Shown: positions 4,400 through 35,384 of the stretch, piece after piece
Layout of the letters: every line of letters begins with the position of its first letter
Position numbering within the stretch: the stretch's first letter is position 1
DNA from: Chiloscyllium plagiosum
Taxonomy: Eukaryota
NCBI RefSeq assembly: GCF_004010195.1
Contig: NC_057760.1
Coordinates: 2,798,413 to 2,834,005, forward strand
DNA length: 35,593 bases
Direction: 5' to 3'
The notes under the pieces: generated by a model
Seen by the model: only the letters and a program-made list of their open reading frames with translations
What the model was told of the DNA's origin: nothing
Database searches by the model: none
Made by a program: the position numbers and the translations under genes

Positions 4400-4660
4400 A
4401 TGGGGACGCTGCATTGAGGGAGTTAGCACTGTCAGAGAGTCCGCGCTGATGGAGTTGGCACCGTCGGAGGGTCAGCACTGAGGAAGCAGGCACCTTCGGA
4501 GGGTCAGCGCTGAGGGAGCGCCGTACTGTTGGAGGGTCAACACTGAGGGTGCATGGCATGTTGGAGCATCAGTGCTGAGGGTGTGTGGCATTGTTGGAGA
4601 GTCTGCACTGAGGGAGCGCTGCACTGTTGGAGGGTCAGTGCTGAGGGCGCACCACGCCAC
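4400..4660. repeat. Degenerate copy of the 30-bp minisatellite
   Basis: Same unit as 1-784. Confidence 0.85.
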
Positions 4661-7809: not shown

Positions 7810-8114
7810 GTACTAACAATTATTGCCAGAAGGTTCCAATGGGTTACATGTTCTCTGTTTAGATGAGACGTGTCAGTGCACCACGTCCATGCCAGTCTTT
7901 GACTTGATTTGTTCACTGCCACTTGCACACTGAAGCCATTTTACAATGCATGCACAAACTAGCACAAATACATAGCGAGGAACAATGACTGATGTAATGG
8001 CCATATATGTATAATATATATATCAGTGGCAATAGGATAGACTGAGCATTCACTCTTTCATCAGGAGTCTCCGCCATCTGCAGCTGATGTGAGTCCATCT
8101 CCTCACAGCATGGA

Positions 8115-8765
8115 GTAGGAGTGTTACTCTGTATCTAACCCTGTGCTGTCCCTGTCCTGGGAGTATTTGGTGGGGACAGTGCAGAGGGAGTATTACTCTG
8201 TATCTAGCCCTTTGTTGCCCTACCCTGGGAATGTTTGATTGGGGGATAGTGTAGAGGAAGCTTTGCTCTGTAATTAATGTTCTGTCCCTGTTTTGGGACT
8301 GTGAGATGGGGCACAGTGTAGTGGGAGCTTTACTCTGTATCCAGCCTTGTGCTGTCACTGTCCTAGGAGTGTTTGATGAGGAGGGGGGATATGGGAACAG
8401 TGTAGAGAGAGCTTTACTCTGTCTCTAAAGCAGTGCTGTCCCTGTCCTGGGAGTGTTTGGTGGGAACAATCTAGAGGGAGCTTTACTCTGTGTCTAACCC
8501 TATGCTGTCCCTGAGCCAGGGAGTGTTTGATGGGGGACAGTGTAGAGGGAGCTTTACTGTGTATCTAATGCAGTGCTGTCCCTGTCCTGGGAGTGTTTGA
8601 TGGGGGACAGTGTAGAGGGAGCTTTACTGTGTATCTAATGCAGTGCTGTCCCTGTCCTGGGAGTGTTTGGTGGGGACAGTGTCAAAGGAGCGTTACTCTG
8701 TCTCTACCCAATGCTGCTCCTGTCCTGGGAGTGTTTGGTGGGGACAGTGTCGAGGGAGCTGTTCT
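8115..8765 (+). repeat. ~61-bp satellite (GGGACAGTGTAGAGGGAGCTTTACTCTGTATCTAACCC...)
   Basis: About 10 degenerate tandem units. Short copies also occur at ~4030-4075 and ~5820-5945. Confidence 0.9.
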
Positions 8766-8819
8766 GTCAGGGTGCTGAGTGTGATTCCTCTCTAATGAAT
8801 TGAATTGTTTTGCTTGCAG

Positions 8820-11494: not shown

Positions 11495-11770
11495 ACTTAG
11501 ATACAGAGTAAAGCTCTTTCTAAACTGTCACCAGCAAATACTCCCCAAGACAGGTATAGCACAGGGTTAGATACAAAATAAAGCTTCCTCAATACTATCC
11601 CCATCAATCATTCCCAGGACAGGGACAACATGGGGTTAGATACAGAGTGAAGCTGCCTCTACACTGTCCCCCCATCAAACACTCTCAGGGACAACACAAG
11701 GTTAGATACAGAGGAAAAGCTACCTCTATACTGTCCCCATCAAATATTCCCAGGGCAGGGACATCCTGGG
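11495..11770 (-). repeat. Same ~61-bp satellite in inverted orientation
   Basis: GGGTTAGATACAGAGTAAAGCT... units, the reverse complement of 8115-8765. Confidence 0.88.
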
Positions 11771-12277
11771 ATAAGATAAGGCAATATTTCAGATAGCCTT
11801 CCTGTGATGTAATGGTTTGAGATTGCTGCTTTGTTTTGTGGTCAGTACACTTTAGAAAGTTCTCCAGCTGCATTTCATGGCTTGCTATGAAAGAAATTTG
11901 GAGAGTTTTTATACGTAAGCAGATTGTTGAGCATTGCTGAAGCTTGGGCTTCATTCAGCAACCCGGAACGATCAGGGCTTGTGCCACTAGACTGGTCTCT
12001 GCTGAAAGATCACTGAGGATGGGAAGGTGCTGTTAGCTGCATTCATTGCCAACTGGCTTCCCAGCCTCTGCAGTGACACGGTCCCAGAGTACATGGTGTG
12101 GGTCACCAGATTGTGAAATCCCAGCTCGTGCTTTGTTTCAGCTGGTGCATTGCTGCTGCAACTTTGAAATAGGCATAGGTTAGTGAGTATGTATTCACAA
12201 CTGCAACCTAGCAACGGGATGCTGCAGTAGGAAGCATTGTTACTGCTGCTAATGCTGCTGCTTTTTTCTGCTCATAG

Positions 12278-12387: not shown

Positions 12388-13055
12388 GTGGGTTTCTTCC
12401 TGCGTTGTGTTTTATTTGAGCTACCACCAGGATACATTGCCATGGTGCCCCTCTGATACCCACTGGGCGGTGTGGTGCCAATCCCCTATTGAGTGCCTTT
12501 GTCTATCAGTTCAGCTTAGCCAGTACCCCACTGTAATACCTGAGACCTTTCCTGGTGTGAAGATCAGAAACCAGATCTCAGCCTTTTCTGAGTTTTAGCA
12601 ATCAGATCTGGGCGACCTAGCCACCCCTAGATAAAACGGAGGGAATCCATAAGGACCCCTCAGCTTTGAGCATTCGGTCTGAACTGTTGATGCTTCAGTT
12701 CACCACTCCAAACTCTCACGGGGTGGGGCACACAGCTTCAGATGCCCTGGTCTAATCCCTTTGTGCTCCAGGGTTAGATTCGCTGGTGTTAGAGATGGTT
12801 CCATCCTGAGATTCATTCAGCTGGTAATTCAGAAGACCTTTTGTTTAGACTCTGCTGGATGGAGTGTTTAGCCTGGAGCTGTACAGACAGACTGCATTTT
12901 GTAAAATGTGAATGCTTGGTAGGGACTTCAGGGCCGATTCCAACTCTCTCACTTTTCCTCAAAAGGTCAGAGCTAGCCGGTCACCCCAAACCCTGGGTAT
13001 GGACCCCTGGGAGATCAGTGACTTTCTCGTTGTTTGGGAATGGCTCAGTGCTCTA

Positions 13056-13378
13056 GGTAGCGGTAACTCCACGCAGGGATGTGATCCCTCTATCCCAGGT
13101 AGCGGTAACCCCATGCAGGGATCTGATCCCTCTATCCCAGGTAGCGGTAACCCCACGCAGGGATCTGATCCCTGTATCCCAGGTAGCGGTAACTCCACGC
13201 AGGGATGTGATCCCTGTATCCCAGGTAGCGGTAACTCCACGCAGGGATGTGATCCCTGTATTCCAGGTAGCGGTAACTCCACGCAGGGATGTGATCCCTG
13301 TATCCCAGGTAGCGGTAACTCCACGCAGGGATGTGATCCCTGTATCCCAGGTAGCAGTAACTCCACGCAGGGATGTGA
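13056..13378. repeat. 42-bp minisatellite, ~7.7 copies
   Basis: Unit GGTAGCGGTAACTCCACGCAGGGATGTGATCCCTGTATCCCA. Confidence 0.95.
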
Positions 13379-21325: not shown

Positions 21326-21519
21326 GGAGAAAGTGAGGACTGTAGATTCTTGAGATCAGAGTCGAGAGTGGTGCTGGAAAAGCACAGAAGGACAAGCAGC
21401 AGGAGAATTGATGTTTCGGGCATAAGCCCTTCAGGAATGAGGGGCTTATGCCAGAAACATCAATTTTCCTGCTCCTCGGAGGCTGCCTGACCTTCTGTGC
21501 TTTTCCAGCACCACACTCA
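21326..21519. mobile_element. Palindromic non-autonomous element, probably derived from Penelope-like terminal repeats
   Basis: Arms GTGGTGCTGGAAAAGCACAGAAGG and CCTTCTGTGCTTTTCCAGCACCAC are inverted around ~21436. Each arm has a decayed hammerhead-like TGA.GGGCTTATGCC.GAAAC.TC. Confidence 0.7.
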
Positions 21520-22714
21520 ACAAGGAATGGAATCAGTGGAGAATGTACTGCTGTCTATTGACAGGGAATGTAGTGGATTAACTGGAGGAACATGCAGATT
21601 ATCCATTCTTGAAGTTCCTAGCAACAGCTGGTATGGAAGTAGAGGTGAGAGTTGTCAGTGTACAGGGAATCACATACTAATTTCTAGATTAGTTATGGAT
21701 TCTAATGTTCCACTTTGCACTTCCACTAATTAAATCCAACTGGGGTTTGATGCATTAATCTTGCAGCAACTAGGGCCCAACAACAATACAAAGGCTTGAA
21801 ACATAAGGACTTCCTGCAGAATCTTGAGATCAAAGTTGACAGAAAGGAAAAGTTCAAACATCTGACAAGCATCTTTTACAAAAATACACACAAAAAGCTT
21901 TTTAATTTCATTGGTACTAGCTTTTTTTCCTAAGTGTGACTAAAGACTTCACTGAATGGGACAGAGCTACCTGGACTGCGGCTTGTTCCAGGGCAGGGTT
22001 AGGAGGTGTGTATTAAGCCATTGGGTGGTTAAAGCTCTGCTGTTTTGTGGTGAGGTACTTAGACCATTTGCAATCCTGCAGAAGAGCCAGGCTTAGGTGA
22101 GACTTTGCTGCATTATGGACTAGTGAACTGTGATACACGTGCAAACAAATCACTGAAAATGTTGGAAATCAGAAATAAAAACAGAAAGTGACTCAACAGA
22201 TCTGGCAGCATTCGTTTTTCTGTCTTCACAGATGCTGCCACACATTGCTGAGTATCTTCAACACTGTTTTATCTGAGCTGTGACACAGCTGGTAACCCAC
22301 ACCACTCCAGCAGAAACTTCCTGTTAGTTCCACACGTGTATTAATTAGAACATTGTTTTTGGCACATCACATGTTGAAATAACAGTCCAATGGCTCAAAA
22401 ATTGTTAATGGTGTTTCTGAATTCTTTCAGCATCTTTGGGGAAACTATCATTTTAGGTGTTCATCTGCTGACCCTGCACCCATTAATATTGGCTTCACGA
22501 AAGAGAACCTCATCAACATGATTTCTGCAAGTTTGTTGTAAATCCCTCAATCTCTAGAAACCAGGTGTGATATAGAAATCTGGTTTGAATGGTAGCCCCT
22601 GCTGTTTCAAGGTGTTGCAGGGAATGTTATTTGGGGCTGCACATCAAGTCTTACATAATGGTACTTAATCTCAGTCCAAAAGTGACCTGTCTTGACACAC
22701 TGGTGACGCTAACA

Positions 22715-23097
22715 GGTGGCTCAGTGGTTAGCACTGCTGTCTCAGCACCAGAGACCTGGGTTCAATTCTCGCCTCAGACAACTGTCTGTGTGGAGTTTGC
22801 ACACTCTCCCGTGACTGCGTGGGTTTCCTTCTACAGTCCAAAGATGTGCAGGCTAGGTGAATTGGCGATGCTAAATTGCCCGTAATGTTAGGTGAAGGGG
22901 TAAATGTAGGGGAATGGGTCTGGATGAAGGGCTTTTGCCCAAAATGTCAATTTTCCTGCTCCTTGGATGCTGCCTGAACTGCTGTGCTTTTCCAGCACCA
23001 CTCTAATCTAGAATCTGGGTGGGTTGCTGTTTGGAGGGTTGGTGTGGATTCGTTGGGTCAAAGGGCCTGTTTTCACACTGTAAGTAATCTAATCTAA
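22715..23097 (+). mobile_element. HE1-type SINE interrupted at ~22922-23015 by a Penelope-like repeat fragment
   Basis: Has an A-box head, V-core and (AATCT)n tail. The inserted GATGAAGGGCTTTTGCCCAAAATGTC...CAGCACCACTCT matches the 21326-21519 family. Confidence 0.8.
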
Positions 23098-24939: not shown

Positions 24940-26500
24940 AGTGCAAGCTCTACCTGGAAGGTTAACGTGGCTAGGTTGGCAGGGGGAATTATCCACCTTG
25001 AGTGGATTAGGGGCTATGACCTTAGTGATTGATTGGGTCTGACTGAAATTCAGAGTGCAATATACCAACTTAACAGTGCACCAGCAGATAAGGCCAAATT
25101 TTTAAAAAATCAAAACTGAAGGTTCTTTATCTGAATGTGTCTGGCATTCACAAGACAGAAATTGTTAGCTCATGTAGAAATAAACTATCCTCTAATACAG
25201 AGATAAAGGGTTGCAAAGTGATTAAAGCTGACATTTGAATAGTTGATGTCATTTGGATGAGCTGGAAATTAGAAAAAGGTGGCAGGATAGCTCTTAATTA
25301 AGGATGGCATTAATACAAAAAAAAGGACCATAGACAGGTTATGAGATTAAGGCAAGATAGTTGAGTTGAAGATCATCCAATCAGCCATGATCTCTCATAA
25401 ATGATGGATTGGATTCGATGGGTTGAATGGTGCTCCTGTGTCTTACTGTGTAATCATCAAGAAGCATTTTGGAAAGGCAAATCAGGGCAGGACTTACCAT
25501 TGTGTGTATAAGGTCCTGGGGACTATTGCTGAACAAACAGACCTTGAAATACAAGTTCATAGTTCTTTGAAAGTGGAGTTACAGATATAAGAAGGTGTTT
25601 GGTATTCTTGCCTTTATTGGTCAGTGCATTAGGTATAGGAGTTGGGAGGTCATGTTGCGGCTGTACAGCACATTGGTTAGACCACTTCTGGAATACTGTA
25701 TGGTATTCTGGTCTCCCTGCTGTAGGAAGGATCTGAGGAAACCTGAAAGGATGCAGAAAAGATTTACAAGGATGTTGCCAGGGTTTGAGCTCGAAGGAGA
25801 AGCCAAATAGGAAAGGGGGGGGGGGGGGGGGGCGCGTCAGAGGCTGAGGGATGACCTTAAAGAAGTTTATAAAATCATGAGGGGCATGTATACTGTGAAT
25901 ATCCAAGATTATTTCCCCAGGATAGTGGAGTCCAAAACCAGAGCACACAGGTTTAAGGTGAGAAGGGACCTAAGGGGCAACTTTTTCATGCAAATAGTGG
26001 TGCATGAATGAGCTGCCAGAGGTGGTGGTGGAGGCTGGTACAATTACAATATTTAAAAGGTATCTGGATGGGTACATGAATAGGAAGGGTTTAAAGGGAT
26101 ATGGGCCAAATGCTGGCAAATGGGACTAGATTAATGTAGGATATCTAGTCAGCATGGATAATTTGGACCAAATGGTCTGTTTCCATTCTGTTCATTTCTA
26201 TAACTCTTATGAGGAATCAGTTTAGGTAGAAGGTTAAATAGCAAAGTTAAGATATTACTTGTGGATGTAGATTATACTTTCCCTAACTGTACAACTCAAG
26301 GACAGAGTGTACAGGGAAAAATAACAGGCTTGTAAGAAAGCATTATTGCAAATTCCGGGTAATTTTAATCTTTACATCGATTGAATAAATCAAATTACGG
26401 CAGATAGCCTGGGAGATGGGTTCATGTAGTGTTTAAGGAAAGTTTCTTAGAGCAGCACATTGTGGAGCCAACTATCAAGGAAGTTACTCTTGGCATTGAC
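24940..26500 (+). mobile_element. Old CR1 LINE 5' ORF2 remnant with a nested CR1 3' fragment (~25470-26205)
   Basis: The nested piece encodes YRSWEVMLRLYSTLVRPLLEYC..FWSP..RMQKRFTRMLPG and ends in a CR1 tail. The flanks resemble CR1 endonuclease sequence. Confidence 0.75.
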
Positions 26501-27785: not shown

Positions 27786-29282
27786 GTTGAAATGTGGAAT
27801 GTTTTCAAGGAACAGATACACGTGTCCTTGATATGTATGTACCTGTCAGGCAGGAAAGAGATGGTCGTGTGAGGGAACCTTAGTTGACGAGGGAGGTTGA
27901 ATGTCTTGTAAGAAGGAAGAAGGAGGCTTACATAAGGTTGAGGAAACAAGGTTCAGACAGAGCATTGGAGGGATACAGGATAGCCAGGAGGGAGCTGAAG
28001 AAAGGGATTAGGAGAGCTAAGAGAGGGCATGAAAACTCTTTGGCAGGTAGGATCAAGGATAACCCCAAGGCACTTTATGCATATGTGAGAAACATGATCG
28101 GACCTCCCTCGTTCTTGTCATTCTCAAGGACAGTAGTGGGAGAGTGTATTGAGTCGGAAGAGATAGGAGAGGTCTTGAATGAGTACTTGAACGAGAGGGA
28201 CCGTATTGTTGAAGAGGAGAGTATGAAATGGACTGGTAAGCTAGAGGAGATACATATCTATCCTCAAGTTTTTCAAAATGCCCAACACATCTTCCTTTCT
28301 AACAAGTCCCCCGGGCCTGACGGGATATATCCTAGGATTATGTGGGAAGTAAGAGAGGAAATTGCAGAACCGTTGGCAATGATCTTTTCGTCTTCACTGT
28401 CAATGGGGGTGGTACCAGGGGACTGGAGAGTGGCGAATGTTGTGCCCCTGTTCAAAAAAGGGAATAGGGATAACCCCGGGAATTACAGGTGAGTTAGTCT
28501 TACTTCGGTGGTAGGCAAAGTAATGGAAAGGGTACTGAGGAATAGGATTTATGAGTATCTGGAAAGACACTGCTTGATTAGGGACAGCCAGCACAGATTT
28601 GTGAAGGGTAGGTCTTGCCTTACAAGTCATATTGAATTCTTTGAGGAGGTGACCAAACATGTGGATGAGGGTAGAGCAGTGGATGTAGTATACATGGACT
28701 TTAGTAAGGCATTTGATAAGGTTCCCCATGGTAGGCTTATGCGGAAAGTCAAGATGTACAGGACTTTGGTTAGGTCACATTTGGAGTACTGTGTGCAGTT
28801 CTGGTCGCCTCACTTTAGGAAAGATGTGGGAGCTTTGGAGAGGTTGCAGAGAAGATTTACCAGGATGTTGCCTGGAATGGAGAATAGGTCGTACGAGGAT
28901 AGGTTGAGAGTGCTAGGCCTTTTCTCATTGGAATGGTGAAGGATGAGGGGTGACTTGATAGAGGTTTATAAGATGATCAGAGGAATAGGTAGAGTAGACA
29001 GTCAGAAACTTTTTCCCCGGGCACAACCGAGTGTTACAAGGGGACATAAATTTACGGTGAAGGGTGGAAGGTATAGGGGAGATGTCAGGGGTAGATTCTT
29101 TACCCAGAGAGTGGTGGGGGCATGGAATGCGCTGCCTGTGGGAGTGGCAGAGTCAGAATCATTGGTGACCTTTAAGCAGCAATCAGATAGGTACATGGAT
29201 AGGTGCTTAAGCTAGGACAAATGTTCGGCACAACATCGTGGGCCGAAGGGCCTGTTCTGTGCTGTATTGTTCTATGTTCTAT
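27786..29282 (+). mobile_element. Younger 5'-truncated CR1 LINE with internal deletion of the RT core
   Basis: ORFs encode KSPGPDGIYPR, DWRVANVVPLFKKG, VDVVYMDFSKAFDKVPH and LEYCVQFWSP, and the element ends in a (TTCTATG)n tail. Confidence 0.9.
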
Positions 29283-29713: not shown

Positions 29714-29915
29714 AAGTAGGCAAGCAGGAGGCTGGAGAGCATGGCAAGCCAGGCAGCATCAGGAGGTGCAGAAGTTGATGTTTTGGGTTTAACCCCTAAA
29801 GAAGAAGGGTTATACACAAAACATCAACTTCTCCATCTCCTGATGCCGCCTGGCTTGCTGTATTCTTCCAGCATCCTGCTTGTCTACTTTGGATTCCAGC
29901 ATCTGCAGTTTGTTT
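29714..29915. mobile_element. Palindromic Penelope-like-derived element inserted in CR1
   Basis: AAGTAGGCAAGCAGG... and ...CCTGCTTGTCTACTT form ~85-bp inverted arms. A decayed GAAGAAGGGTTATACACAAAACATC hammerhead-like motif is present. Confidence 0.7.
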
Positions 29916-30290: not shown

Positions 30291-31950
30291 TCAGGAGCAA
30301 GAGGTTAGCTGGGGAAAAGGTAGGTCCACTCAAGGACAAAAGAGGGAATTTATGTGTGGAGCTGGAGGAAGTGGGTGGGGTCCTAATTAAATACTTTGCA
30401 TCAGTGTTCACCAAGGGGAAGGATCTGGTGGATGGTGAGTCCTTGGGGCAGGTATGTCGACATAAAAAAGGTGGTGGTGTTGGGTGTTTTGAAAAGTATC
30501 TGGACCAGGACCTGATGGGATCTGTCCCAGAATGCTGAGGGGGAAATTGCTATGGCCTTGAACAAAATCTTTGTATGCTGTTTAGTCACAGGCAAGGTCC
30601 CATGGAATAGCAAATGTTGTTCCTCTGTTTAACAAGGACATCAGGGATAATCTGGGAATGTACAAGCCAGTGAACTTTATGTCAGTGGTAGGGAAGTTAT
30701 ATGAGAAGATTCTTAGGAACAGGATTTACTCACGTTTGGAAAAATATGGGCTTATTAGCAAGACTTCATGCGGGGAAGGTCACGTCTCACAAACTTGATT
30801 GTGCTTTTTGATGAGGGCGAGGCAGTGGCTGTTGTCTACAAGGTCCCTCATGGCAGGCCTGCACAGAAGGTGAAGTCCTATCAGGTCCATGGTGAGCTGG
30901 TAAGATGGATACAGAACTGACTTGGCATAGAACACACTGTAGTGGCAGAAGGGTGTTTTTCTGACTGGAATCTGTGACCAGTGGTGTTCCACAGGGATCA
31001 GTACTGGAACCCCTGTGGTTTACAATACATATAAATGATTTGGATGAAAGTCTGACTAATAGGTGTGTAGACGATACAAAGATTGGAGGAAGCTTAGGTT
31101 AGTGAGGAGGATTGCCAGACGATACAACAGGACATAGACAGGTTAGAGACTTCGGTGAAGAAATAGCAGATGGAGTTTAATCCAGACAAATGTGAGGTGA
31201 TGCATTTTAGAAGGTCTCATGCAGGAGAGAGGTACAGTATACAGCAAATAGCAGAACCTTTAGTAGCATCGACATACAGAGGGATATAGGTGTACAGGTC
31301 CACATTTCCCTGGAAATGACAACACAAGTGGATAAGTTGGTCAAGAAGGCATATGGTAAGCTTGCCTTCATCAATCAGGGCATAAATTATAAAAATTGGT
31401 AAGTCATGTTGCAGCTGTATAGAACTTTATATAGGCCACAGAAAAGGTTTACCAGGATGTCACTTGATTTGGAGAGAATTAGCTATGAAGAGAGGTTGGA
31501 CAAACTTTTTGTTTTCATTTGAACATCAGAGGTGAGCTGATAGTTTACAAAATTGTGATAGGTGTGGATAGTTGGAATTTTTTTCCCAGGGCAGAAATGT
31601 CAATATCTTGGAGACACAGGTTTAAGATAAAAGTTGGAAAGTTTAAAGCAGATGTGAGAGGCATTTTTTTCCAAGCACAGAGGGCGGTGAGTGCCTGGGA
31701 TGTGCTATCAGAGGAGGTGATAGAAGCAGATACGATAGCAATATTTAAGAGGCATTTGACAGAAACATGAATAGCAGGATATGGACTGCAGATTTTAAAG
31801 AAGTGTTTGTGATTTTCCCAAATTTCCCTGGATTCTGGGAAAGCCACATCAGATTGGAAACTGGAAAATATAGCTCGTGTCTTCCAGAAAGCTGTAAACT
31901 ACAGGCCCATTAGCTTATTCATTGTGGGGAAAATGCTACAATCTGTTGTT

Positions 31951-32200
31951 TAACTGGAAGCACACTAGCTTTCGGAGTGACACTCCTTCATCAGGTGGTA
32001 GTGGAGGGCTCAATCCTAACACAGAATTTATAGCAAAAATTTACAGTGTGATGTAACTGAAATTATACATTGAAAAATTGATTGTCTGTTAAGCCTTTCA
32101 TCTGTTCGAACAGATGAAAGCTAGTGTGCTTCCAATTAAACCTGTTGGACTATAACCTGGTGTTGTGTTGTACACCCCAGTCCAACACGGCATCTCCCAA
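31951..32200 (-). mobile_element. Penelope-like element terminal-repeat fragment with a partial inverted copy
   Basis: 31951-31973 is the near reverse complement of 32116-32138 (GAAAGCTAGTGTGCTTCCAATTA). The fragment contains a hammerhead core and interrupts CR1. Confidence 0.7.
31963..31997 (-). ncRNA. Minimal type I hammerhead ribozyme motif
   Basis: The - strand reads CAC-CUGAUGA-A-GGAGU-GUC-ACUCC-GAAA-GC-UA-GUG. This gives a complete core, a 5-bp stem II, a palindromic AGCU stem III and a 3-bp stem I. Confidence 0.7.
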
Positions 32201-33682
32201 TCAATGAAATCAGGCAGAATCAACATGGTTTTGTGAAATGAAAATTGTATTTGACTGAAGTCAAGGCAACTAGAGTCAACAAGCAATGTGGAAAAAGGGG
32301 ATCTTCACAGATGTGGTGTGCTTGGATTTCCAAAAGGCATCTGATTTGGTGCCACACTGAAGTTTACTCACAAAATGTGAGCTCATGGTAAAGTGGGTGA
32401 AAATGGCTCGAGGATTGGCTAACTAATGTTGAAGCAAAATAGGGCTAAATCACTCATTGCAACTTATTTTTTGCTAACTTAGAAAAGTGTCGTAGGGATC
32501 TATGCTGGAGCCTCTTTTTAACCATCTATGTCAATAGCTTGTATGAAAATGAGGGGACCAAGTGCACCATTGCTAACTTTGCTGATGACAAAGATAAAAG
32601 AATAAGTTGTGAGGAGGACAAAGGGATTTGAACAGGTTCGATGAATGGGCAAAAATGGAGCTCTCGTGCCAAACTCTGAACTTGTCCACTGTAGGAGAAC
32701 GAATAGAAAGGGGATGAGATTACAAAAATGTGTGGTACAGTGTCCTAGTACATGGATCACAAGTTAGTATGCAGGGACATTAAATGATTGGGAAGGCAAA
32801 TTGAAAGTCTTTGTTTATTGTAAGGGGAATGGAATATAAACGTAGGTATGTGGTGGAGGCTGGTACAATTACAACATTTAAAAGGCATCTTTTAAGGATG
32901 GGTATCTGAATAGGAGGGGTTTAGAGGGACATGGGCCAAATCTGGGAAATGGAACTAGATTTATTGAGGATATCTGGTTGGCATGGACGAGTTGGACTGA
33001 AGGGTGCGATTCTGTGCTGTACATCCCTATGACTTATGTTTTATTGCACTTGGTGACACCACATCTTAACTACTATGCACATATTTGGTCTCCTTACTTA
33101 ATAAAAATGATTAATTGTATTAGCAGTTTAGACAAGGCTCACTTGACTGGTTCCTCTGAGGGAAGGTGGCATTTTACAAGTTACAGAGGTGATCTTATTG
33201 AAACATATACAAGCCGGAGTGTATTTGACAGGAAGCACACTGAAAAGAATGTTTTGTCTTGGATAGTTGAGACAGGAGAAATCTTTTCTGAGGATTGCTT
33301 ATAGTAGAAGTCTCTTCCCAGGGGGTAGGGGAGTCTGGATCATTGAACATTTTTAAAGTCAGGTTGCCAATGTATTGTTGAATGACAAAGGGAATCAAAA
33401 AGTGGACAGGAGAGAGGAGTTGAGGCCACAATCAGATCACCGTCAAGCTACCTCATCAAACAGCATAATAGGTCCAAGAAATGAAATGGCACACTCCTGC
33501 TTTGAAATTCTAATGTGCAAGCTTGCCTTCCTCTGTTGAAAGAGATTACTGAGAAAGATGAGGAAGGACAAAGAGAGAGAGGGGAGATTGTGGGCCATAA
33601 TTGAGTACAGTGAAATTAGCAGAGATGCCCAGGTTAGGTGGCTGGTCTGCATCTTTGGTCTGAGGGGTGTAAGGAACACCTT

Positions 33683-33706
33683 TCTCTCTCTCTCTCTCTC
33701 TCTCTC
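33683..33706. repeat. (CT)n microsatellite
   Basis: Seen directly. Confidence 0.95.
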
Positions 33707-34316
33707 ACATCAGACGCTGAGTTTTCAGGCCAATGGATCAATAAGAGCTCTGGGGGGGGTGCAGAAGTGATTATGAAACCTCAGGAGTCAGAACTCCAAA
33801 GAGCTTTGGAGGACACAATGAATATTCACTGAAGGACTTGGAAGCTGAAATACAGAATTACTGGATACAAAATATGATAAATTCAGTTTCTCCTAAATCT
33901 CTAAAATCTTTGGATGCTTTTCAGCCAGCTTAAAATATTTGGATGTATAGAATATTTAGTTCTAAACTAGGAGCTGTTTAACTCAGTCTGCAGTGAGACA
34001 GTTTGAGAGGGTTTCTCTCACTGCGGTTCGAACCAATGACTCTTGAGGTAGTTGTGTCAGTCACTGGATGTGGAGAACTTACTAAAAATGGCTCACATTT
34101 AAAACATTCATGTCAGTTGAGGTAGGAATCTTTGGAGTGTCCGACTGCATTGGGTTAGTACGAACAAATTCAGTTAAAGCTGGTTCTAGACTTGCTAAAA
34201 TTCCAGGTAAACCCGATTTTTAAAAATCCGGTCTCAAACCCACATCAGATCTTTGGTTCAGAGGAAAATACAAAGAGGAAATTGAAATGGTGGAGCTGTG
34301 TCTCTGCTGGAGGTTC

Positions 34317-34424
34317 TCAGGGTTTGGGTCCTGTTGGATGTTGCTCAATCACGACCTGAAGCTGACTGGAGGAACATTCTCGATCATGACCATTCTCTGA
34401 AACTGCATCTCCGTTCTGAAACTT
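34317..34424 (-). CDS. IGDCC3-like: IGDCC3-like probable terminal coding exon
   Basis: Polypyrimidine tract then ttaAG|AAG (a NAGNAG acceptor). Encodes KFQNGDAVSENGHDRECSSSQLQVVIEQHPTGPKP* (TGA). Confidence 0.65.
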   Translation of the reverse strand, partial: KFQNGDAVSENGHDRECSSSQLQVVIEQHPTGPKP

Positions 34425-34522
34425 CTTAAAAAGTGAGAGGAGAGTGGCGTATCAGGGTAATGCAAAAATATACACGTGATGGGTAATTACTGATGCTGCA
34501 ATTATTATGAAATTGGTCTCAC

Positions 34523-34670
34523 CCCACTGACAAACTCCGTCATCTCCATCACTCTCCCAGCTTCATCCTTTTTATCCAGCTCCACGTGGCCATTCTGTCC
34601 CTCTTGGCTCAGGCTATGTCCAGCCTGTGGGACTGTCCAACTCTCCTTGATACCCTTACACCCAAACAGA
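34523..34670 (-). CDS. IGDCC3-like: IGDCC3-like cytoplasmic exon
   Basis: ttttAG|T...GGG|GTgaga, phase-compatible with the preceding exon. Encodes SLFGCKGIKESWTVPQAG...VMEMTEFVSG. Confidence 0.75.
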
Positions 34671-35063
34671 CTAAAAGACACGGAGACAGAGTGAGCACAT
34701 CAGCTAATCTCTTACATGTCCTCTACAATTCTCTTTCTCTCACCAAGCTTGGGCAGGAAATTTGAGATGAGCTGAAAGGTCTGTTTGTGTGCTTCATGAC
34801 TCTATCACCTTTTCAAAGGTCCCCTCCTCAACTGTCACTTCCTTTTTCTCCCTTTCTTCATCCCTCCACTCTTCACCCCCCCCCCCCCAACATTATCCTC
34901 ATACTTCCTTCTCTTTATCCCTTCACCCTTCTCCTTTCCTTCACTCTCCCCTCCCACTTCTCCTCCACCCCCTTGCCTCAGTCTTTTCCCAGCCTCCTTC
35001 TTCAACCCTTTCCGCACTGTGTCTCCCCATCCTCCACTCCATCCTCCCGCCACATCCCATTAC

Positions 35064-35196
35064 CTTCTCTGGTACCCCAGCATGAGGATGAGAACACAGA
35101 AGATGATGCAGGCCATTCCAATGTGGATCCCGACCACTATGCCGGTCAGTGGGCTCTCTGTTGATGACTTACAGTCACAGGGGGGAGTCTGTGGGG
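35064..35196 (-). CDS. IGDCC3-like: IGDCC3-like transmembrane exon
   Basis: ttacAG|CC...AG|GTaatg. Encodes APQTPPCDCK...TGIVVGIHIGMACIIFCVLILMLGYQR, similar to IGDCC3 PPCDC...[21 protein letters not shown]. Confidence 0.9.
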
Positions 35197-35279: not shown

Positions 35280-35384
35280 CTGGCAACTCAGTATTCTCCC
35301 TCAGAGACACGTATCGCTCCGTGCTGTTTCCATCTCCATGCTGGTTGAAGGCTGACATCTTAATCTCGTAGAGTGCCGAAGGTT
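35280..35384 (-). CDS. IGDCC3-like: IGDCC3 (PUNC)-like exon, end of last fibronectin type III domain
   Basis: ttgtAG|AA. Encodes EPSALYEIKMSAFNQHGDGNSTERYVSLRENTELP, similar to IGDCC3 [24 protein letters not shown]. The donor is probably GC (G|GCATGT), so the 3' boundary is less certain. Confidence 0.85.

Follow-up and report, generated by a model that had tools for sequence, protein, structure and literature searches.

Whether a short sequence that resembles a hammerhead ribozyme is a genuine member of that class, what it derives from and whether it acts where it now lies are the questions raised by one locus in the genome of the shark Chiloscyllium plagiosum. The window analyzed here is the whole stretch of 35,593 nucleotides (contig NC_057760.1, positions 2,798,413 to 2,834,005), and all coordinates below refer to it. 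It is very probable that the motif is a minimal hammerhead from the pseudo-LTR (pLTR) of a very high-copy shark Penelope-like element (PLE) family, carried in a dead, ORF-less remnant and probably inactive at this position.

Architecture of the hammerhead motif

31963..31997, minus strand, minimal type I hammerhead (sequence; descriptor scan with shuffles; match to the published consensus)

Read from 31997 to 31963, the minus strand is CAC CUGAUGA A GGAGU GUC ACUCC GAAA GC UA GUG. Stem I (CAC/GUG) has 3 bp, the core elements CUGAUGA and GAAA are intact, and the 5-bp stem II (GGAGU/ACUCC) is opened by G10.1-C11.1 and closed by a 3-nt loop, with stem III reduced to the palindrome AGCU at 31970-31967. 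An extra A, a trait of PLE minimal hammerheads (min-HHRs), is present at 31987, before G10.1. A17 lies at 31966, and the sequence predicts cleavage 3′ of this residue. In letters, strand, core, stems and A17, the motif is as a preliminary description of the DNA had read it.

A type I hammerhead descriptor applied to both strands of the window returned one site, which was this motif. In 200 dinucleotide shuffles, sites fitting the relaxed descriptor occurred at a mean of 0.065 per window and strict sites did not occur. The hammerhead searches that had been suggested at the outset differed in outcome: the descriptor found the motif, but Rfam yielded no hammerhead, with no matches over the window at gathering scores and with none of the nine weak matches in 31700-32400 at E ≤ 10 being a hammerhead. 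The folding energy of the 35-mer alone was no better than that of shuffles (z −1.03).

A second hammerhead-like family is represented by four decayed copies, with sites at ∼21432, 21439, 22926 and 29804. These have a stem II of the GGGC/GCCC type and lie in 21361-21521, 22915-23004 and 29714-29889, two of them arranged back to back as inverted pairs. At each of the four sites the core or the palindrome is damaged, in many cases at a CpG.

Anatomy of the insertion

31948..32107, minus strand, copy A, a putative 5′-truncated PLE end
32108..32200 (end approximate), plus strand, copy B, an inverted piece
32095..32120, no strand, perfect 26-bp palindrome at the junction of copies A and B
31949..31954, minus strand, decayed poly(A) hexamer of copy A, GTTAAA (ATTAAA in copy B)
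31825..31952, plus strand, left flank, decayed LINE reverse-transcriptase (RT) sequence up to the insertion
32209..32384, plus strand, right flank, the same LINE RT resuming in order (IRQNQHGF, then VCLDFQKA)

The motif lies within an ORF-less insertion of ∼255 bp, from 31948 to about 32200, which consists of two pieces arranged head-to-head. Copy A, delimited by self-BLAST and by family reads and contigs that align and then diverge beyond 32110 and 31948, comprises the full ribozyme between ∼110 nt of body and a 3′ flank of 15 nt; its tail is gone after 31948. Copy B, delimited by self-BLAST and by loose ends at 32126 and 32168, begins with ∼12 nt of body, jumps at a shared GAAAG to the 3′ half of the ribozyme only (32116-32126) and then runs into the 3′ flank. 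It retains the poly(A) signal and the tail; a short stretch is deleted after 32168. Self-BLAST aligned copy B with copy A in opposite orientation at 25 of 26 identical nucleotides, and the palindrome at their junction was predicted to form a hairpin. In the window the motif occurs once in full and once as an inverted half, and there are no tandem direct pLTRs; the lack of a partial tandem in the insertion is as expected of a truncated copy.

A second LINE RT segment of the window, at 28300-28900, was compared with the flanks by tblastn. The left flank matched from 31825 (E 3e-6), and the sequence resumed in order in the right flank (E 0.12 and 1e-5). By these alignments, the insertion splits a decayed LINE reverse transcriptase, which we take to be of CR1 type. 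Fish RT-containing proteins gave no significant match to the flanks, and Pfam returned nothing for the 31-amino acid left-flank peptide. The copy would have entered this old LINE as a 5′-truncated insertion accompanied by a second, inverted piece.

At the 31952 junction, part of the LINE seems to be absent from the window. A contig from a related species (run X14) departs from the window at 31952 and continues with 58 unlike letters, which would suit an empty site as well as a tail that was not deleted. Elsewhere in the window, tandem minisatellite-like arrays, some with inverted copies, occupy 1-784, 4415-4650, 8104-8767, 11497-11778 and 13052-13378, and there is an assembly gap of 500 bases (a run of N) at ∼785-1284.

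Abundance and consensus of the family

Four of the 24 sequencing runs listed were aligned to 31500-34800 at 85% likeness. Two DNA runs, one from each of two species, gave a summed contig depth of 1.1-4.0 million over the element, compared with ∼8-17 on the unique flanks; this depth is not a copy number, yet a value of that size indicates a major repeat. The loose ends that extend 5′ from copy B, in 535 contigs of run X4 and 609 of run X14, give a majority consensus that keeps the whole core in both species. The motif is, accordingly, a member of a dispersed family whose consensus keeps the core. Conservation across genomic copies, the lack of which had been named at the outset as grounds for giving up the reading, was thus found at the level of the consensus rather than copy by copy.

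The family consensus of stem II is GGAGC/GCTCC, and copy A differs from the 30-nt family consensus at four positions, all at the stem II tip. An interpretation of the change from C-G to U-A in stem II as compensatory or selected was rejected, since CpG decay yields the same pattern. The family variants of stem II include decay forms of CG-N-CG, and two neutral CpG transitions would therefore explain the change. At 3-10% divergence, all 15 core positions are expected to remain intact in 0.63-0.21 of neutral copies, and the copy has probably been drifting neutrally since its insertion.

Another very high-copy repeat was observed at 32850-33040 and 26025-26205, with copies 80% alike and many RNA reads in run X21. 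This is presumably the 3′ tail that LINEs and SINEs of sharks have in common.

Relationship to Penelope-like elements

Minimal hammerheads in the pLTRs of metazoan PLEs were described in 2014 by Cervera and De la Peña (PMC4209133; cited, like all papers below, from the portions of the source available). The shark motif fits their consensus of a 3-nt stem I, CUGANGAH, G10.1-C11.1 and GAAAN-palindrome-NUH, and shares with the published min-HHRs the type I form, the absence of a helix III loop, a palindromic 15/16, an extra nucleotide at 9/10.1, the G10.1-C11.1 pair and a short stem I. Among the individual entries, Xenopus(2) resembles the shark motif in having a stem I of 3 bp, a stem II of 5 bp and A17, and the CAC/GUG stem I recurs in Lottia(2). 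This kind of motif has been known since 2014, and the shark copy adds to it. No shark is included in the 56 motifs of Fig. S3, the terms “shark” and “cartilaginous” are absent from the available main text, and no paper on shark PLE hammerheads was found in a literature search outside which most subscription papers and repeat databases lay. The preliminary description had assigned the motif to the PLE-type minimal type I hammerheads that need dimers. The class is borne out by the fit to the consensus, whereas the need for dimers is taken from the literature, in which cleavage of min-HHRs was absent from monomers and slight in dimers (PMC4209133).

The layout of the insertion, with its 5′ truncation, inverted adjacent copy and tail, also counts in favor of a PLE, because 5′ truncation and an inverted neighbor are typical of these elements (PMC8557442). 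EN+ PLE insertions described by Craig et al. in 2021 likewise show 5′ truncation, an inverted truncated copy at the 5′ end and a tail at one end only, whereas in the shark only ∼255 bp survive and the window gives no clade. The min-HHRs of PMC4209133 were mostly solo copies from truncated elements, with some opposite-strand pairs 100-700 bp apart, as at the shark locus; unlike in those pairs, the opposite-strand partner here is half a ribozyme only.

A descriptor scan of metagenome contigs gave two matches, L001 and L002, and a scan of viral contigs gave none. The two contigs, from a marine metagenome, belong to one family and are 99.6% identical. Their motif is identical to that of the shark at 31 of 35 positions, with 23 positions fixed by the search pattern, and all seven free stem I/N17 positions agree; stem I in L001/L002 reaches 5 bp. 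The flanks do not align and the likeness extends only over the 35 nt, so L001/L002 represent a different family from the shark element. An RT fragment is present in L001 (RVT_1 at E 1.5e-5, which falls short of the curated cut-off). In L002 there is an ORF that is GIY-YIG-like (Atlas 0.97; nothing in Pfam) and has a CX4CxxC linker, which is of the CX2-5CxxC form of the Neptune and Nematis types (PMC8557442). Taken as they stand, L001 99-449 and L002 48-581 and 738-1414 resemble a rearranged PLE with a GIY-YIG-like ORF, an inverted internal segment, an RT fragment and the hammerhead. No PLE ORF was present in the remnant or the window, and tblastn with the L001/L002 ORFs gave no match in the window. 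From these likenesses of sequence, we strongly infer that the shark family is Penelope-like. The insertion, which the preliminary description called a Penelope-like fragment, would then be a remnant of that type, but the inverted piece at 32108-∼32200 was missing from that account.

Polyadenylated RNAs of the family

32135..32155, plus strand, poly(A) signal of the family, ATTAAA (32135-32140), with the addition site at 32153-32155 and a GU-rich stretch behind it (family RNA reads)

Family RNAs were observed in run X21, a single-cell poly(A) run with the same species label, of which about 2 in 100 was read. Here, 321 reads switch to poly(A) behind 32155; these are family reads with no source locus assigned. 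In 431 reads, a set that may overlap the 321, a junction with a poly(T) tail precedes 31948. The poly(A) tails of family RNAs start 13-15 nt behind ATTAAA, which is 30-32 nt downstream of the cut site. At this position the family sequence is not A-rich, and 275 reads continue past the site. In the bin containing the ribozyme, first mates gave depths of 684 on the plus and 157 on the minus strand, a bias that points mainly to ribozyme-sense family RNA. Family reads also extend 5′ beyond 32110, which makes the parent element longer than the fragment at this locus.

The cut site is spanned by at least 105 reads, with 34 start positions, and read ends did not accumulate there in the X21 library. 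A poly(A) library loses both cleavage products and is nearly blind to them, so the lack of such accumulation says little about cleavage.

In copy A, the signal is mutated to GTTAAA and the tail is missing; in copy B, the signal is intact, on the other strand, beside half a ribozyme. In L001/L002, AATAAA occurs 18 nt after the cut site, and inspection by eye of the published motifs located AAUAAA or AUUAAA in 11 of 56, within the ∼15 nt printed after the cut site (PMC4209133). The literature search described above, with the same scope, found no paper on a poly(A) site just behind PLE hammerheads, and term searches of the available portions of PMC4209133, PMC8557442, PMC11167929 and PMC2377424 found no mention of polyadenylation.

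A comparable arrangement is the Clec2 3′ UTR hammerhead of rodents, in which the cut also lies upstream of the poly(A) signal (PMC6765202); in both layouts, cleavage would therefore remove the tail. The Clec2 sequence differs in being a split ribozyme that cleaves and lowers expression, whereas shark cleavage is only predicted and the poly(A) signal of the copy is lost. Use of the poly(A) site is observed for the family. It is very unlikely, on the other hand, that the hammerhead and poly(A) site of PLE pLTRs form one conserved 3′-end module, donated by scattered copies to many shark RNAs, in which palindrome pairing of two RNAs, or one RNA together with PLE protein, could cut off tails. The copy at 31963..31997 would take no part in such a module.

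Predicted folding of the copy

In the parent element, two copies would pair via the palindromic AGCU to form helix III, as tandem pLTRs of one transcript. The ribozyme, which precedes the poly(A) site by ∼30 nt, would cut only as such a pair and probably with the aid of the element's own protein. The hammerhead of Poseidon PAc of Anolis carolinensis cut only with its protein and was dispensable for insertion in vitro (Frangieh et al. 2024, PMC11167929). Like PAc, the shark family has a minimal hammerhead, in a putative pLTR, with a tail extension downstream and no RNA-seq ends at the cut site; PAc, however, is an intact element with cleavage shown in the presence of protein, whereas the shark copy is ORF-less and known from its sequence.

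In any minus-strand read-through RNA, antisense copy B would sit ∼120 nt upstream of the motif and pair over the cut site. The predicted duplex of 26 bp (−42.1 kcal/mol) covers the 3′ half of the ribozyme. In both 291-nt and 801-nt contexts, U16.1 and A17 were paired with copy B at a predicted P of ∼1.0 and stem I had a P of 0.0; even without copy B, the predicted probability of stem I was only 0.04. The active double-hammerhead fold was calculated at −12.9 kcal/mol versus −27.3 kcal/mol for the dimer minimum, a weak test in that the active fold of L001 was also not its minimum. Nearest-neighbor energies leave out the tertiary contacts of the core, and the active-fold comparison therefore discriminates poorly. 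Given that there is no partner in cis and that the inverted piece is predicted to lie over the cut site, the copy most likely does not cut, and the folding models make its activity at the locus unlikely.

The neighboring IGDCC3-like gene

34317..35194, minus strand, last three coding exons and stop codon (34319-34317) of an IGDCC3-like gene (protein match)

A 44-amino acid exon peptide of this gene is 98% identical to the Chiloscyllium punctatum IGDCC3-like protein, and the last two exons are 100% identical. As had been described, the gene is on the strand of the motif and ends ∼2.3 kb upstream of it, the distance from stop to motif being 2,319 nt. Between the two are AATAAA hexamers at 33045, 32965 and 32819. 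By comparison with the protein, the exon before the transmembrane exon (35280-35380, minus strand) appears to have a GC rather than a GT donor.

Contigs from run X17 at 34047-34275, 32620-32770 and 31579-31750 have no differences from the window and a depth of ∼3, like the exon contig of this run. They may represent read-through or DNA, the RNA nature of X17 being a guess. Runs X17 and X14 share an organism code, yet the X17 contigs are identical to the window where X14 differs, and one label may be off.

Alternative explanations

A random fit to a short hammerhead consensus would agree with the lack of an Rfam hammerhead match at the motif and with the unexceptional folding energy of the 35-mer. 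This is hardly credible against the zero strict sites in 200 shuffles, the retention of the motif in a two-species family consensus and its presence in a homologue with unrelated flanks beside RT and GIY-YIG sequence; the family data effectively refute a chance origin. A genuine hammerhead could instead belong to a non-autonomous repeat, a non-LTR retrozyme or SINE-like unit, derived from a PLE end but with its own cycle. Such repeats are non-coding, carry type I hammerheads and are kin to PLE pLTRs; animal retrozymes have been proposed to derive from these pLTRs and were present in the single chondrichthyan examined (10.64898/2026.07.22.740005). The missing ORF, the very high abundance and the polyadenylated RNAs would all suit this explanation. 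It is nonetheless very unlikely, because retrozymes are tandem arrays of direct units that each contain a ribozyme, unlike the one full motif and inverted half found here, and because family reads go on 5′ past the truncation point at 32110.

The preferred assignment to a dead PLE remnant must also be weighed against a function of the copy in host RNA, in which an IGDCC3-like mRNA with a long 3′ UTR, or a transcript reading through the end of that gene, would be ended or destabilized by cleavage as a trans dimer or with the aid of protein. The strand shared with the gene, the position 2.3 kb past its stop, the intact core and stems and the sparse X17 contigs on both sides of the motif are consistent with this, abundant family RNAs with the same palindrome are possible partners, and the anole PLE hammerhead cuts once its protein is added (PMC11167929). 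Against it stand the predicted antisense block by copy B, the three AATAAA hexamers after the stop and the poor cleavage of published min-HHR monomers and dimers (PMC4209133). The zero X21 depth in 31833-31943, 32277-32720 and 33498-34496 also speaks against it, but weakly, since the gene itself is barely seen in that run (0.77, one exon bin). Taken together, these points make a role in host RNA very unlikely, and the function at the locus that the preliminary description implied is unsupported for a solo copy whose cleavage site is predicted to be under antisense cover.

Implications

Rfam misses the minimal-hammerhead class, and such motifs will therefore keep seeming new in scans. Were the 3′-end module described above to exist, it would amount to a transposon-derived, dose-dependent deadenylation switch, Clec2-like and genome-wide. 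Use of a poly(A) site 30-32 nt past the cut makes the family arrangement testable, because cleavage would part the body of the RNA from its tail. The single copy itself matters little, being one relic among very many, and the result at the level of the family is of modest use: a very abundant shark family whose RNAs are polyadenylated and uncleaved lends itself well to cyclic-phosphate sequencing.
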